A stretch of 64,000 nucleotides of DNA from Spirochaetia bacterium (GTDB lineage: Bacteria > Spirochaetota > Spirochaetia > DSM-16054 > Sediminispirochaetaceae), in NCBI GenBank assembly GCA_034520965.1, contig JAXHMY010000008.1:1-64000 (forward strand). Reading direction: 5' to 3'. Made by a program: the position numbers and the translations under genes. Of the stretch, positions 45,626-60,620 are shown piece by piece. Positions within the stretch are counted from its first letter, which is position 1, and every line of letters begins with the position of its first letter. The notes beneath the pieces were generated by a model. It saw only the letters and a list, made by a program, of their open reading frames with translations, was not told the DNA's origin and searched no databases.

Positions 45626-46745
45626 TTATAAGTGTCGAATATAGCAGCGCCGCCGTTTGTTAAGGCGGGTTTCAAAATTTTTCATAATCGTAATGATGTT
45701 TGAATTATCTTCCAGCTCGCCGCAGGTTTGTACATACTCTATGCCGTAGTCTATACACTCCCGATAAAGTTCCGAAAGGAGAATTGCATTCAGTCCTCGG
45801 TTTTGGTAATCAGGGCGTGCACCAATCAGGTAAAATACCAATTCCTCCGGCTTTTTAAGGGTTTTGAGCAAATGCAGAAAACCGAATGGAAACAGCCGGC
45901 CGCCGGATTTTTGCAGAGGCTTCGTAAGGCGCGGCAGGGCAATTGCAAAACCCACCACCTCGTCGTTTTGATTGCTTAAGAGTTTTATGAAATCGGGATT
46001 TGTAAAAGTTAAATACTGTTTTATATAGCTCGTCCACTTGTGCGTCGGTAAGCTCTACCACCCCGTATAAGTCTGCGTAAGAGGCATTCAGGGCATCGAA
46101 GATCCCCTTCCCATAGGGCAGTGCGTCTTTCATACGATCAAAATGCAGCAGCTTAAGCTTATTCCGTTCTAACACCAGGTCTTTCATCCGGGTAAACTTT
46201 TCCCCTATCTGTTCCGGCACCTTAATTTCAAACTGCAGCCAGTCGACATCCTTTCTATACCCAAGCTGTTCTATAAGAGTCGGATAATAGGCATGGTTAT
46301 AAATCATCGGAAGCGTCCCCCGCTCTTTGAAGCCCTCAACCAATAATCCCTCTTTATCGAAATCGGTAAAACCCAAGGGCCCATGAACGGCTTCCAGCCC
46401 CTGCTCTCCGGCCCATGTCTCTACAGCTTCAAACAGGGCTTGGACTACATCCTGACGATTGACCGTATCGAACCAACCAAAACGCAGATATTTTTGCTTC
46501 CACTTTGCAATAAATTTATCATTGCGAATAGCTGCAATTCTGCCTAGCACTTGCCCATCCTCATAGGCGAGCCAATAGCGAGCTTCGCAGTGCTCAAAAG
46601 AGGGATTTTTGTGTTTCGAGAGGGTGTTTATCTCGTCAAAAAAAAGCGGTGGAACCCAATAGGGGTTATCTCTATAAAGAGAATAGGGGAATTTTACAAA
46701 AGTTTTAAGGTCACGGCGGCTTACAACCTCTTTCAGCTTTACCAT
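45626..46745 (-). CDS. GNAT-family protein similar to bacterial ceramide synthase bCerS/YghO (frameshift near 46000)
   Basis: FVKFPYSLY...WVPPL..DE...KNP...GRIAAI...RFGWFD...GPLGFTDFDKEGLLVEGF...YNHAYY; C-terminus YQNRGLN...ELEDN. Confidence 0.75.
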
Positions 46746-47011: not shown

Positions 47012-47829
47012 ATGACATTTCGAAGAAGCTTTCGCATTGCAGTGTATAGTATCGCTCTACTTCTGTTGACCACGGGAGTCTGGGCCGGAGGATCTCAGGA
47101 ATCGGACCAGACCACTTTAGCTAAAATCCAAGAGCAAGGCAGTTTTGTACTTGGTCTTGACGACAGTTTTCCTCCCATGGGCTTTCGCGGAGAGTCGGGT
47201 GACATTGTTGGATTTGATATTGATCTGGGTCGTGAAGTAGCCAAGCGGATGGGGGTAGAGCTCGAATTGCGCCCGGTTGACTGGGACGGGGTTATTCTTA
47301 GCCTGAACAAGGGCGATATCGATATGATCTGGAACGGTATGACTATTACCGAGAGCCGACAGGAGAAAATCGATTTTTCTAACCCCTATCTGGCGAACCG
47401 GCAAATCATAATAGTTGCGGACGATTCAAATTTGACTTCGAAAGCGGACCTCGCCGGCAAAACCGTAGGAGTTCAGATGGGCAGCAGCAGTGAAGAAGCT
47501 ATTAGCGGTGAACCCGAGGTGAGAGAAAGCTTCAAGGAGCTGACAAAAAGTATGCAGATAACGTAGTGGCTCTGCTGGACCTCAAGGCCGGACGCACCGA
47601 TGCGGTTGTGGTGGACGAAATTATGGGCCGTTACTACATCGGCAAAAGGCCCGGTGAGTACAAGGTGCTGAACGAAGACTTTGGGCGTGAAGAATACGGA
47701 ATCGGCTTCCGTCAAGAGGATGATGCCTTTCGCAAGAAAGTGGATGCAATTTTAAAAGAAATGAATGAAGATGGAACCACCGCTGAAATATCAAAAAAGT
47801 GGTTTGGCGAAGACATCGTTCTAAAATAA
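47012..47829 (+). CDS. Polar amino-acid ABC substrate-binding protein (frameshift near 47545)
   Basis: GLDDSFPPMGF, GFDIDL, IWNGMTIT. Confidence 0.9.
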
Positions 47830-49249: not shown

Positions 49250-50528
49250 TTAATGGTTCAAACCATGGGGAATTGAAGCAGGGAGTCGAATTACCCCCTC
49301 TATTAGAGTGTACCCACACTTTATTTTAGAGGAGGCCTGCCAATGCTTATCCCCCCATTTTGTCCCCATTCCGAATGTGAATATCACACCCAGCCACCTG
49401 ACCACGGGCGCTGGTACTACACCAATGGCAGCTACGAGACCCTGGCCCATGGCTCGGTCACCCGATTCAAATGCCTCGGATGCGGAGGAGGCTTTAGCGA
49501 GCAAACCTTCCGCCTGGACTACTATGTAAAGAGAAAGCTCGACTATCAGGTTATTTTCGATCACCTGACCAATTGCGGAGGAGTGCGTAAAACCGCCCGT
49601 ATAATGGAGGTCAGCCACCAAGCGATCATCAACCGCTTAGGCCGCCTCGCCCGCCAGGCCATCGCGCTGCAGGCCGATGTCCTCCAGGACTATGTTCCCT
49701 GCGAGGACCTGGTCACCGACGGGTTCGAGAGCTTTGTCAGCGATCAGTATCCAGCCGAATAACATTCACATCCTGGCCGGCAAGCGTTCACAGTTCTTTA
49801 TCACCTTCGACTATGCCCATTTGCGGCGCAAGGGAAAGATGACCGAGCTGCAGAAGGACGAGCGTGACCAGCGGGAGAGGCACTACATCCGCAAGAGGAT
49901 ATCCATCAGTCAGTCCTTCCTGCAGATTGTCGATCTGATCGAGCAATACGCACAGAAGCGGCGGTTTACCTGCCTCTACAGCGATGAGAAGCTTAGAGTA
50001 TCAAAGATTGGTCATGGGTTCGGATGTGCTCCAGAGCCTAAAAAGCGAGGGGAGGTTTGAGCATGTGAGAATCTCCTCCCTTTTGGCGCGCACCATCGAC
50101 AATCCACTTTTTTCTGTCAACTATCTGGACAGGCAATTCAGGAAGGATAATGCCAATCATGTGCGCGAGACGGTGCGCTTCTCCCAGAATGTGAATAACT
50201 GCCTTGAGCGCATGGCCGTCTACCAGCTGTATCAAAACTATTTTAAGCCCTTTCGCATCGGAGATCCATTTCTTCAGAACTTCTCCCATGCCGAGGTGGC
50301 CGGTGTGCCACGGGGTAAAATCGCAAGAGGGCTGCGGGGCATCTTTACCATGCGCAAGTTCTACACGCATGTAAAGCTCAACTGGTCGCAGCTGATGGTG
50401 TGGGCACGGATGACCGGAACCCTGGATAAGTTCGACGGGATGTACTGGCCCAAATATGTGTGGATGTAACCTCCCTTACTCGCAGCCGGCGTGTGGAAAT
50501 TCGCATCCCCCATGGTTTGAACCATTAA
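49250..50528 (+). mobile_element. Insertion sequence, IS1-like
   Basis: 21-bp perfect inverted repeats TTAATGGTTCAAACCATGGGG at 49250-49270 and 50508-50528; outer TTAA or TA may be the target duplication. Confidence 0.85.
49343..50469 (+). CDS. Transposase (zinc ribbon, HTH, DDE-like), frameshifted
   Basis: FCPHSEC...RFKCLGC; GVRKTARIM; DGFESF; YSDEK; ORFs 49343-49762, 49677-50060, 49984-50469. Confidence 0.75.
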
Positions 50529-50628
50529 ACAATCTTTACTAAAATTCTCGATAATTACTTGCCTCTGCTTAGGTGAGATTACTATATTTCATAGAGACAG
50601 TAAGTTCTTATATGAAAAGGAGTCTAAA

Positions 50629-52856: not shown

Positions 52857-53037
52857 GCTAATCCGTAACCAATGACCGGTTACCGGGCTGACCTGGGGCT
52901 GACTCGATGGCGCTGCAGCACGGCGCAGGAGAACTGGGCTCTGCGCCCGGGGCTAATAGAAGTGCATTTTTTATAGGGTATTGACACAGCATTGCTAAGC
53001 CACTAGTCTACACAAGTTCTTAATAGGAGAGGCAGGG

Positions 53038-53883
53038 ATGTATAAGTTTGCATTTCACAACGCTTTAATCACCGGCGGGTCCAGTGGAATCGGTTTGGCA
53101 ACGGCGCAAAAATTGGTAGAGAGCGGGGTGAATGTAATGTTGGTAGCCCGGGATTATGAGCGGCTTGGGGCGGCCAAGAGGCGGTTAGAGGAACGTGCGG
53201 CCGAGGGAGCTGAGGTTTTAGTTGTGGCGGTGGATGTGTCCGACCGAAAAATGCTAGAAAATGTGCTGGCCCCGCTAATAATGAATGGCATCCCGCCGGA
53301 TTTAGTGGTAAACTGCGCAGGGATGGCGTATCCAAACTATTTTGAACAGATTGACTCCGAAATTTTCGATAAAACAGTGCAGATTAACTTAACGGGTACC
53401 TGGAATATCCTCAAATGCGTGGTTCCGACCATGGGGCCGGGGGGCCATATTGTGAATGTATCCTCGGTGGCCGGTTTGGTGGGTACCTTTGGGTACACCG
53501 CCTACAGTGCGAGCAAGTTTGCTGTAATTGGGCTGAGTGAGGCTCTGCGGAACGAGCTGTCCCAGAAGGGTATTGGCGTGTCGGTGCTGTGTCCGGCAGA
53601 TACGGATACCCCTCAACTGGAGTTTGAAAACCGTACCAAGCCGCCGGAAACCCGGGCTATTTCCGGGAATGCCGGCGTGATGAAGCCTGAACAGGTGGCC
53701 GAGGCACTGCTTGCGGGAGTGCGGAAGAAGAGATTCTTAATTGTTCCCGGTGCGCAGGCGAAGCTGGTGTACCTGGCAAAACGCTTGGTTCCGGGATTAT
53801 TATATAGAATAATGGATCGGGAAGCAAAGAAATCGTTAATAGTTTCGCATGCCGCTGTACGGCATGCGAAACGACGAAAATAG
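53038..53883 (+). CDS. KDSR-like SDR (putative 3-ketodihydrosphingosine reductase)
   Basis: TGGSSGIG; NCAGMA; YSASKFA; KDSR-type PxDTDTP..ENRTKP.ETR.IS...KPEQVA. Confidence 0.8.
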   Translation: MYKFAFHNALITGGSSGIGLATAQKLVESGVNVMLVARDYERLGAAKRRLEERAAEGAEVLVVAVDVSDRKMLENVLAPLIMNGIPPDLVVNCAGMAYPNYFEQIDSEIFDKTVQINLTGTWNILKCVVPTMGPGGHIVNVSSVAGLVGTFGYTAYSASKFAVIGLSEALRNELSQKGIGVSVLCPADTDTPQLEFENRTKPPETRAISGNAGVMKPEQVAEALLAGVRKKRFLIVPGAQAKLVYLAKRLVPGLLYRIMDREAKKSLIVSHAAVRHAKRRK

Positions 53884-53925
53884 CCGTATCCGGCTATTTT
53901 CTTAAAAGCATAGGAGTGGGTGCAT

Positions 53926-55154
53926 ATGGAAAACAAACAGCAGGTTGCTGAGATGAACAAAAACATTTTTGACAAATGCTACGACTTTAAGGAAGCTGCA
54001 GAGGCACGTACTTCGGGTATTTATCCTTTTTTTAAGCCGATTGAGCGCAGTCAAGGGACAAAGGTGTATATTGAAGGCCGCGAGATGTTAATGGCCGGCT
54101 CAAATAACTATCTGGGTTTGGCCAACGATCCCCGCCTAAAAGAGGCCGCGGAGAAGGCGGTGGAGCGCTACGGAACCAGCTGCTCCGGTTCTCGCTTTAT
54201 GAACGGCACTTTAGATTTGCATGAGCAGTTTGAGGAGAAGCTGGCCGAGTTTGTGGGAAAAAAGTCGGCGGTCTGTTTTACCACCGGATATCAGACGAAT
54301 TAGGGGCGATATCCGCGTTAGTGAATCGGGGAGAACATGTGATCACCGATAAGCTGAACCACGCCTCTATTATGGACGGGATTTTTCTTACTTTTGGTAT
54401 TCATAAACAGGTAAACCTGCACCGCTACAAACATAACAATATGGAAGAGCTTGAAAAAGTTCTTAGCAAGATTCCTAAGGAAGAGGCAAAACTCATTGTC
54501 ACGGATGGTGTCTTTTCGATGGAGGGGGATATCGTACGTCTGCCGGAGATGAAACGGCTGGCCGATAAGTACAATGCCGGGGTGTATCTGGACGAGGCCC
54601 ATGCAATCGGTGTGATCGGGAAGAGCGGCCGGGGGACCTGTGAATACTACGGCGATTCCGACCTGGCGGATTTGATTATGTGTACTTTCTCTAAATCCTT
54701 CGGCTCGATCGGCGGCTTTGTGGCCGGAGAGCCTTCGGTAGTCGATTACATTAAGCATTTTGCTCGACCTCTGATTTTTAGCGCCTCCATGCCGCCGGCC
54801 AACATTGCCGCGGCAATGCAGGCACTTGAAATTATGAAGATAGAGCCCGAACGGATTCAACGGCTGCAGGTAATAGCCGACAAAATGATCTCCGGCTTCC
54901 GGTCCCTCGGTTTTAATGTGGGAACGGCGGAAACCCCGATTGTTCCGCTTATTATAGGCGACAATAACAAGACCTTTGCCTTCTGGAAGGTACTCTTTGA
55001 GCGGGGCATTTATGTGAATCCGGTGATTAGCCCGGCGGTACCACCCAACCGTTCGCTGATTCGCACCTCCTATATGGCCATTCACTCGGATGAGGAGTTG
55101 GACTTCTTTCTAGAGGTGGCCGCGGAGGAAGGCAAAAAACTGGGAATAATTTAA
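53926..55154 (+). CDS. spt: Serine palmitoyltransferase-like PLP enzyme (frameshift near 54300)
   Basis: [49 protein letters not shown]. Confidence 0.8.
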
Positions 55155-55209: not shown

Positions 55210-56397
55210 ATGAGTGAAGAATTATCGTATATTTTAGTAAGCCCTTATACAATTGCTAAAAGCCGGACCGGAGGAGTTATTTCGAGGCTTCTCTCCCGCC
55301 TTGATTTAGAACTGGTTGGAGCCCAGATGTTTGCACCGACTAAGGAGTTAGCAGAAGAGTATGCGGAGCTTATCCGTACCAGCGGTACCTTTACCCGTAA
55401 AATAACCGGTGAATTGTTAAGCAACTATGTACTGGAAAGCTTTTCCCCTTCTACCCGGCGACACAGAGTGCTGATGCTGCTGTTCCGAGGAGAGAACGCG
55501 ACTCGGAAGCTTTCCGATATCGCCGGAGCAATTTATCCGGAGAACCGCGGTGTCGAGTCGCTCACCGGTGAAACGATCAGGGATACCTACGCCGATCTTA
55601 TTATGGATCATGACGAGCCCGATAAGGTGCGCTATTTTGAACCGGCTGTGCTTACTCCGCGAACTCAAGAAGTGGCTCTGCGCAACATGAAGCTGTTTGC
55701 CGACTTTATTAAAGATGAACCAACAATAATTCATAATATGCAGTATCCGGACCCGAAGCAGATAGAGCGGACTCTGGTTATTATTAAACCCGACAACTGG
55801 CGCTACGCAAGCTCGAGGCCGGGGACAATTATCGATATGTTCAGCCGCACGGGGCTGCGTATTATCGGTGTGAAGGTACATCGGATGTCGGTGAGCGAGG
55901 CTCTGGAGTTCTACGGTCCGGTAAAGAACGTACTGCGGGACAAGTTGGCACCTGTATTCGGGAAAAAGGCGGGGGAATTGCTGGAAAATGAGTTTGGATT
56001 GAAACTCAGTGATCAGACTGTCCGTTTTCTTACCGAGTCTTTCGGTGTTGAATACGCTGAAGATCAGTTTTCTCAAATAGTTGAGTTTATGTCCGGCCAT
56101 AAGCCCGAGGAGGTGCCGGTTGATGAGCTGAACGAACATGGAAATGTAAAGTGTATGGCCCTGATATATGAGGGGGAAAATGCTGTCCAGCGGATACGCG
56201 AGGTTCTTGGACCTACGGACCCAATGAAAGCTCCCGGTGGAACGGTACGGCGTGAGTTTGGACGGGATGTGATGGTAAATACAGCCCATGCCTCTGATGC
56301 ACCGGAAAATGCACAGCGGGAAATGAAAGTTATTAAGCTGGAGCAGAACAGCTGTTTTCAGATTCTAAATGACTATATTAAGAGCCAAGAAGCTTAA
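55210..56397 (+). CDS. ndk: Long (two-domain) nucleoside diphosphate kinase
   Basis: RTLVIIKPD; LGPTDP..APGGTVR; NTAHASD. Confidence 0.85.
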   Translation: MSEELSYILVSPYTIAKSRTGGVISRLLSRLDLELVGAQMFAPTKELAEEYAELIRTSGTFTRKITGELLSNYVLESFSPSTRRHRVLMLLFRGENATRKLSDIAGAIYPENRGVESLTGETIRDTYADLIMDHDEPDKVRYFEPAVLTPRTQEVALRNMKLFADFIKDEPTIIHNMQYPDPKQIERTLVIIKPDNWRYASSRPGTIIDMFSRTGLRIIGVKVHRMSVSEALEFYGPVKNVLRDKLAPVFGKKAGELLENEFGLKLSDQTVRFLTESFGVEYAEDQFSQIVEFMSGHKPEEVPVDELNEHGNVKCMALIYEGENAVQRIREVLGPTDPMKAPGGTVRREFGRDVMVNTAHASDAPENAQREMKVIKLEQNSCFQILNDYIKSQEA

Positions 56398-60454: not shown

Positions 60455-60620
60455 TTTGAACCTCCAAAATCATATTTACTCTGTAATAGTTTTGCATGCC
60501 CCTTTGCGGCATGCAAACCGACGAAAATAGCCGTATTCGACTATTTTCTTAATATTAAATTTGCTATAGTCTATATTACTATATTATCTTACCACGTTTT
60601 GAGAGCCAAGGGGGGGGAGC

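Follow-up and report, generated by a model that had tools for sequence, protein, structure and literature searches.

A KDSR-family SDR gene next to a probable serine palmitoyltransferase gene in a spirochaete: a candidate sphingolipid pathway

In the genome of an uncultured spirochaete (assembly GCA_034520965.1), the gene of an SDR of the KDSR family lies directly ahead of the gene of a PLP enzyme, which is most likely a soluble, Bacteroidota-like serine palmitoyltransferase (SPT) using L-serine and a long-chain acyl-thioester. Together with a GNAT acyltransferase encoded about 6 kb upstream, both enzymes would probably form a pathway in the order SPT, SDR and GNAT, with putative activities leading from serine and acyl-thioester to ketosphinganine, sphinganine and dihydroceramide. 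According to this proposal, SPT would condense L-serine with long-chain acyl-CoA or acyl-ACP to 3-ketosphinganine in the cytoplasm, the adjacent SDR would reduce the C3 ketone with NADPH to sphinganine, equivalent to the second step of the eukaryotic route, and the bCerS-family GNAT would N-acylate sphinganine to dihydroceramide, which would probably become a membrane component in a cell where no lipid A pathway was detected. The identity of the genes, their family placement, their synteny and the lack of any CerR match are shown here; the substrates, the order of the steps, the product and the membrane role of this spirochaete module we infer from sequence and context.

The window, meaning the whole stretch of 64,000 nucleotides analysed here (contig JAXHMY010000008.1), belongs to a genome of 3.35 Mb in 9 contigs that is 86% complete. 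Both genes of the pair are located on the plus strand at 53038..55154 (Table 1), and the gap between the stop of the SDR and the start of the PLP enzyme is 42 bp (ATG, 53926) or 36 bp (GTG, 53920), in agreement with the two co-oriented genes about 40 bp apart described in the first-pass annotation of this DNA. The motifs quoted there were all found again, namely TAYSASKFA, CPADTDTP, ENRTKPPETRAIS and KPEQVA in the SDR as well as an 18-letter motif and TFSKS in the PLP enzyme. Neighbouring genes are syntenic with Sediminispirochaeta-labelled and Spirochaetia MAGs (56-100% identity), with flanking genes at about 90% DNA identity to Sediminispirochaeta-labelled MAGs and a Spirochaetia MAG; the assumed spirochaetal origin of the contig is therefore borne out. 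The same SDR-SPT order is found in three Sediminispirochaeta-labelled MAGs (SDR 66-70%, SPT 88-90% identical to the window), where the PLP enzyme is intact (409 residues). Upstream of the pair, the promoter-like site is absent from the listing of a promoter scanner (second hexamer 3/6 only). The two-hairpin REP-like repeat occurs at 33 places in the genome, including 53835-53905 and 60484-60552, and its insertion, missing from relatives, accounts for the last ~15 residues of the SDR and for the greater part of the space between the two genes; in this region, 53835-53899 is skipped by one contig of run X1. The nucleoside-diphosphate-kinase-like gene downstream, present in 9 of 80 SPT loci, all from the closest relatives, probably has no part in the pathway. 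Its product of 395 aa carries repeated nucleoside-diphosphate-kinase domains and has about three times the usual length. Two side observations are added. An insertion-sequence-like element at 49250-50535 of the window, with transposase ORFs in pieces, occurs in about 10 nearly full-length copies across the genome (86-96% identity) and is absent from relative L010. Furthermore, a cluster at G000:C2:512137-516194 resembles an archaeal-type pantothenate route, with products that we take to be GHMP kinase-like, phosphopantothenate-synthetase-like and PanB-like proteins and a group II PLP decarboxylase.

Table 1. Features in and around the gene pair (positions refer to the window)
Feature	Position	Strand	Basis
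bCerS/YghO-family GNAT acyltransferase, candidate N-acyltransferase	45626..46745	-	sequence
Promoter-like site: perfect TTGACA, 17-bp spacer, weak -10 TAGTCT	52981..53009	+	by-eye reading
Shine-Dalgarno-like site preceding the SDR start	53025..53032	+	sequence
KDSR-family classical SDR (281 aa), predicted NADPH-dependent 3-ketosphinganine reductase	53038..53883	+	sequence, family tree
Two-hairpin REP-like repeat over the SDR 3' end	53835..53905		sequence
SPT, N-terminal 125 residues, premature stop from a one-base deficit at ~54300	53926..54303	+	sequence
SPT, C-terminal 284 residues: HAS, DEAH, TFSKS (PLP lysine), C-terminal arginine	54300..55154	+	sequence
Nucleoside-diphosphate-kinase-like gene, downstream, co-oriented with the pair	55210..56397	+	sequence

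The SDR is predicted to reduce 3-ketosphinganine to 2S,3R-sphinganine in an NADPH-dependent manner. In an alignment of 65 homologues the triad S143-Y156-K160 and R38 are invariant, as are G13, G17 and G19 of the Gly-motif, which follow the TGxxxGxG pattern of classical SDRs, and the predicted model has a Rossmann fold (pLDDT 93.8). Human KDSR/FVT-1 reads PPDTDTP ... KPEQVA, and the substrate-loop motif of KDSR/TSC10, P-x-D-T-x-T-P...E...K-P, is present in the SDR; the loop PPDTDTP...E...KP is common to the SDR and to cnidarian, crustacean and plant KDSR domains, with an equivalent in Cryptococcus TSC10. The latter (8JAT) was also the best PDB match of the C-terminal half, which contains the substrate loop, in an ungapped alignment with identical ENRTKP. 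In whole-length searches TSC10 was tied with FabG-like and clavaldehyde dehydrogenases, and Foldseek/VIA-align gave near-tied SDRs with HSD17B13 at the top and 8JAT not among the matches listed. Identities to animal and plant KDSR domains were 36-43% for six and 32% for a seventh; these domains came from a search among long proteins and were cut from chimeric animal and plant gene models, one of them named KDSR by UniRef. In the proposed tree of the SDR against KDSR/Tsc10, run twice with IQ-TREE (LG+G4, no mixture model; hand-chosen rows, 70 of 119 in the first run and 65 in the second), the prokaryotic members and the seven eukaryotic KDSR domains formed one clade with a support of 98/96 and 98/97. 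The eukaryotic domains were monophyletic and nested among prokaryotic members; the supported subclade in which they lie also holds Chloroflexota, Actinomycetota, cyanobacteria and proteobacteria and does not include the window SDR. An eighth eukaryotic match (Aplysia) without the motif was placed outside the clade. The window SDR thus belongs to a broad family of prokaryotic proteins to which eukaryotic KDSR belongs as well, and it is not sister to the eukaryotic clade. Since the eukaryotic KDSRs nest inside the prokaryotic family, apart from the window SDR, an import from eukaryotes is not indicated, and neither tree gave a sign of such a transfer. Of the earlier description as a eukaryote-like reductase, the KDSR family stands by motif and tree, but it is the eukaryotic KDSRs that nest within a large prokaryotic family.

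No transmembrane segment was detected in the SDR (maximum 19-residue hydropathy 1.33), and no signal peptide either, as the protein opens directly with a Rossmann strand. Because the ER transmembrane anchors of eukaryotic KDSR (FVT-1) are missing, as expected of a bacterial member, we call the SDR a member of the family and not a eukaryotic KDSR. Some of its homologues are already auto-annotated as '3-dehydrosphinganine reductase', and in the literature examined we found no measured activity for any member of this prokaryotic family. An identity as BT_0972-type KdsR was rejected, as the window SDR reached 91 bits on NF049977 (cut-off 400), less than the FabG-like SDR of the same genome.

For the synteny check across Spirochaetota suggested earlier, the 80 closest SPT loci were compared: in 35 of them (33/75 where at least 1 kb of upstream sequence is present) the SDR gene immediately precedes SPT, and in the other 45 no SDR is adjacent. 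In four of the 80 loci the same slot, between the same flanking genes, is taken by a GNAT together with an epimerase resembling CerR, which scores 172-198 bits on an HMM built from seven CerR homologues, and these four genomes have no family-level SDR (best 146 bits). Conversely, in 12 genomes where the SDR-SPT pair is present, CerR-like matches do not exceed 69 bits in 11 and reach 160 bits in the twelfth. Six genomes have no reductase beside SPT; of these, three encode a CerR-like orthologue at another locus (263-276 bits), a fourth has a weak match, and the remaining two have no match. This alternation is to be read as a pattern and not as a statistic, because the genomes are kin and mostly incomplete MAGs. 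Across 401 spirochaete genomes, an SPT-like gene (at least 45% identity; 86 weaker ones lie beyond) was found in 72 among the matches listed, the SDR in 62 and the GNAT in 131. Among the matches listed, the SPT-bearing genomes have the GNAT in 66/72 and the SDR in 24/72 cases, with all three in 20, and an SPT-like gene at 45% is missing from 38 of the 62 SDR-bearing genomes and from 65 genomes with the GNAT. Seen from the SDR, an SPT-like gene lies directly downstream in 18 of 87 loci (Spirochaetota, Chloroflexota, many of them, and deltaproteobacteria). In 5 more the SDR gene comes after an AOS gene; a PKS was confirmed for the Rhizobium locus and also found beside AOS-SDR in a Sinorhizobium record. 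Most SDR loci have no SPT nearby, and many copies adjoin an epimerase-like gene or a lyase/kinase pair, so that the family has other uses.

Several arrangements of KDSR-family SDR genes are recorded here in their own right. Nine of 70 long homologues are natural AOS-SDR fusions of ~740 aa (P0126, P0127, P0129, P0130, P0139, P0143, P0148, P0150 and P0154), one-protein candidates for both steps, and the AOS domains of six scanned fusions were ambiguous (BioF, KBL and SPT models all 300-350 bits). In deltaproteobacteria and spirochaetes the SDR is fused to or located beside an extended-SDR epimerase-like protein distant from CerR (P0128, P0146 and ~35 similar proteins; L004-L006, L098, L100-L102). 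At L007:7983-12084 and L112 it adjoins an FGGY kinase and a group II PLP lyase or decarboxylase, which presumably resembles sphingosine-1-phosphate lyase and may point to sphingoid catabolism. An operon at L088 and L089 (G183, G258) combines two GT4 glycosyltransferases, an LPG-synthase-type membrane protein, a PMT-like protein, GNAT, SDR and SPT and is a candidate glycosphingolipid pathway. In family f41 (L092-L094) the SDR gene, the closest relative of which is a Promethearchaeum copy (L435), is divergent from genes of an acyl-AMP ligase, an AOS outside the SPT clade (GGS replacing GSR) and a GNAT. Cyanobacterial SDRs at L397, L399, L401 and L433, which a cnidarian KDSR domain matches best by BLAST, adjoin AOS genes, some with PKS or acyl-AMP-ligase genes.

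The first-pass annotation had ended the pathway at sphinganine; with the bCerS-family GNAT 6 kb upstream it probably continues to ceramide. This GNAT is 27% identical to E. coli YghO (E 3e-47), yghO being a homologue of the Caulobacter N-acyltransferase aca/bCerS (PMC9386255), and 28-31% identical to alphaproteobacterial copies near spt, and represents a divergent subfamily of bCerS homologues. Its position is kept in relatives L002, L003 and L010, and in other spirochaetes it is found in one operon with SDR and SPT. Sediminispirochaeta smaragdinae also encodes this GNAT (61% identity). A CerR was not detected: the best match in this 86%-complete genome reached 41 bits compared to 408-463 for the training set, a spirochaetal CerR-like query gave no match either, and nothing exceeded 61 bits in four close relatives. 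LpxC was found in none of the six genomes searched, including this 86%-complete one, and a dedicated ACP or acyl-ACP synthetase was not found near spt. The order of steps could also be that of Caulobacter, with the GNAT acylating 3-ketosphinganine first and the SDR reducing the oxidised ceramide in place of CerR. The accessible part of PMC11087976 describes bCerS as acylating the keto base in Caulobacter, the GNAT accompanies SPT in most SPT-bearing spirochaetes as counted above, and the SDR and the CerR-like gene alternate in one syntenic slot, although this shows the same job and not the same substrate. Nevertheless, we regard this order as unlikely and favour reduction first, because the SDR is kin of eukaryotic KDSRs, which act on the free base, because it has no signal peptide, whereas CerR is periplasmic as far as described in PMC11087976, and because three near-complete genomes with the SDR-SPT pair (G030, G094 and G230) have no bCerS match even by HMM. 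Free sphingoid bases or another N-acyltransferase are possible in the latter.

For the PLP enzyme, the best PDB match of the C-terminal part was the SPT of Sphingobacterium multivorum (275 bits), followed by dual AONS/KBL (193 bits), Sphingomonas SPT and KBL (188 bits), and then by cysteate acyltransferase (153 bits) and BioF (151 bits). NF047600 (SerpalmtaseCFB) was the best NCBIfam model, on which two intact orthologues reached 512-514 bits compared to 369-389 on KBL and BioF models; they stay below its cut-off of 640, which was also reached in none of 41 genomes of a Bacteroidota sample, and KBL-type proteins score ~350 on this model. In a FastTree of 113 rows, the proposed tree against SPT, KBL and AONS, the enzyme formed a subclade of its own, mostly spirochaetal, and grouped with the SPTs of E. 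coli and alphaproteobacteria and with Bacteroidota SPT-like proteins (0.998; the Bacteroidota rows are uncharacterised and include no experimentally proven SPT), apart from KBL, BioF, ALAS and PKS-linked AOS enzymes. HAS, DEAH, TFSKS, with the lysine that we take to hold the Schiff-base position, and LIRTS align with SPT references. The corresponding PLP-site residues are numbered His159, Asp231, His234 and Arg390 in the accessible part of PMC6148460. As these motifs are common to other AOS enzymes they are a necessary criterion only, and the GSR-x-x-NG motif agrees with SPT rows and not with KBL or BioF. The pair might make another amino-alcohol, i.e. a 1-deoxy base from alanine or glycine, a capnine-type product from cysteate or a short-chain product. 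Such a reading draws on the score below the curated NF047600 cut-off, on the poor readability of AOS specificity from sequence, on the pairing of the family SDR with other AOS clades and on the abundance of 1-deoxy and other odd sphingolipids in anoxic waters, as given in the accessible part of PMC11334938. It appears quite improbable, as the S. multivorum SPT is far above cysteate acyltransferase, KBL and BioF as a match and GSR-x-x-NG fits SPT.

In this assembly the SPT gene is split into two frames at ~54300, with 125 + 284 aa adding up to the 409 aa of intact relatives. The first-pass annotation had suspected an artefact, and the frame break is probably an assembly error, an explanation far more likely than decay. 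The gene is unbroken in all 80 of the closest SPT relatives, both halves are still 86-90% identical to intact orthologues, and contigs of run X4 keep the frame at 54305 and at 46031, close to the single extra base (~46032) that splits the GNAT gene (372 aa intact in relatives). In a genome-wide test, 259 ORFs taken from 400 kb of a relative's sequence were compared; 134 orthologues were well covered, and 19 of these are split (14%; 0.16 events per kb), including pyruvate:ferredoxin oxidoreductase (in four places) and aconitase. At this rate a gene of 1.2 kb is expected to break in ~18% of cases. By a hand count, 3 of 16 distinct genes around the locus that are comparable with relatives are split. 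One neighbour, an amino-acid ABC substrate-binding gene at 47012-47829 of the window, is split by two extra bases at ~47543-47549, and this break is an assembly error, since an otherwise identical X1 contig lacks the two bases. If the breaks were real, the strain would have lost a pathway kept by its relatives, with SPT and GNAT as pseudogenes. Two of the three pathway genes are indeed split, and, among the matches listed, near-identical run X1 shows no insertion that would restore the frame at the SPT break; in view of the genome-wide rate, the X4 contigs, the X1 contig at 47543 and the conserved SPT halves, we consider such a loss very unlikely. A housekeeping KBL or BioF beside an unrelated SDR is finally a most improbable reading, for although KBL and BioF models still give the bits mentioned above and pairwise BLAST rates E. 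coli KBL (241 bits) about as high as E. coli SPT (232 bits), the genome holds a separate KBL (59% to E. coli KBL) and no match to BioB, the FastTree separates them, and the SDR-SPT coupling is conserved in the relatives and across phyla, so that the earlier choice of SPT over KBL or BioF holds.

More tentatively, and with the odds somewhat against it, the prokaryotic SDR family might be the source of eukaryotic KDSR, and SPT plus SDR, with or without bCerS, might constitute a widespread third bacterial route in which the SDR is interchangeable with CerR at the same slot. If the family is the source of KDSR, the first two steps of the eukaryotic reduce-first synthesis would be a bacterial inheritance. 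On the same reading, sphingolipids would serve in the outer sheath of free-living spirochaetes that lack lipid A. The position of eukaryotic KDSRs, nested within the bacterial family, is relevant to the question of where eukaryotic sphingolipid synthesis originated. The SDR is a testable reductase candidate for many SPT-bearing bacteria without CerR, a gap noted in the accessible part of PMC11334938, and with this family, relatives of human KDSR that are small and soluble become available for structural work and assays. Spirochaetota can be added to the likely sphingolipid makers, with SPT-like genes in 72 of the 401 sampled genomes among the matches listed. According to the accessible part of PMC11334938, 38 phyla contain SPT-like genes, in many cases with neither bCerS nor CerR in the vicinity, and 'spiroch' is absent from its main text and that of its preprint, as far as accessible. 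Our literature search, with most subscription journals outside its scope, gave no paper on spirochaete sphingolipids; reduction first is already known from Bacteroides with another SDR, and a reductase like eukaryotic KDSR has been proposed in Pseudomonas.

Among known systems, the S. multivorum SPT (PDB 3A2B/8GUH) is the best solved relative of the window SPT and likewise a soluble single-gene AOS with HAS, DEAH, TFSKS and a C-terminal Arg. In B. thetaiotaomicron, the classical SDR BT_0972 was shown to reduce 3-ketosphinganine in a bacterial reduce-first route (PMC9278070, accessible part); it is of a different lineage (NF049977 KdsR), and according to the same part of that source spt and BT_0972 are unlinked in Bacteroides, whereas the window spt follows a reductase gene. 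With eukaryotic KDSR/FVT-1/TSC10 (8JAT) the window SDR shares the substrate-loop motif, a supported clade, the NADPH-type Gly-motif with Arg38 and the proposed reaction; it differs by the missing transmembrane anchor, an identity of 32-43% and its position in the tree, which is not sister to the eukaryotic clade. Several SDRs with 21-27% identity to Tsc10p reduce ketocapnine, as stated in the accessible part of PMC11211663. The pathway of Caulobacter and E. coli B (Spt-bCerS-CerR), with acylation first in Caulobacter (PMC11087976, accessible part), is similar in SPT and the bCerS/YghO-family GNAT, but here a cytoplasmic KDSR-family SDR is found instead of a CerR match. E. coli BL21 encodes a reductase and an acyltransferase of its own (PMC9386255). 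In Pseudomonas fluorescens MYb115, PfSgaA-B-C contains an AOS with proven SPT activity adjoining an SDR, PfSgaC, described as a homologue of eukaryotic KDSRs, the activity of which is only proposed, within a PKS sphingolipid cluster (PMC12134224, accessible part). Rhizobial PKS-AOS-SDR capsule clusters carry the family of the window SDR (37.6% identity), and we infer that PfSgaC belongs to it as well; in contrast to the window, the acyl chain is supplied by a PKS in these clusters and their AOS belongs to a different clade (34% identity). The gene pair is also found in many bacteria other than this one.
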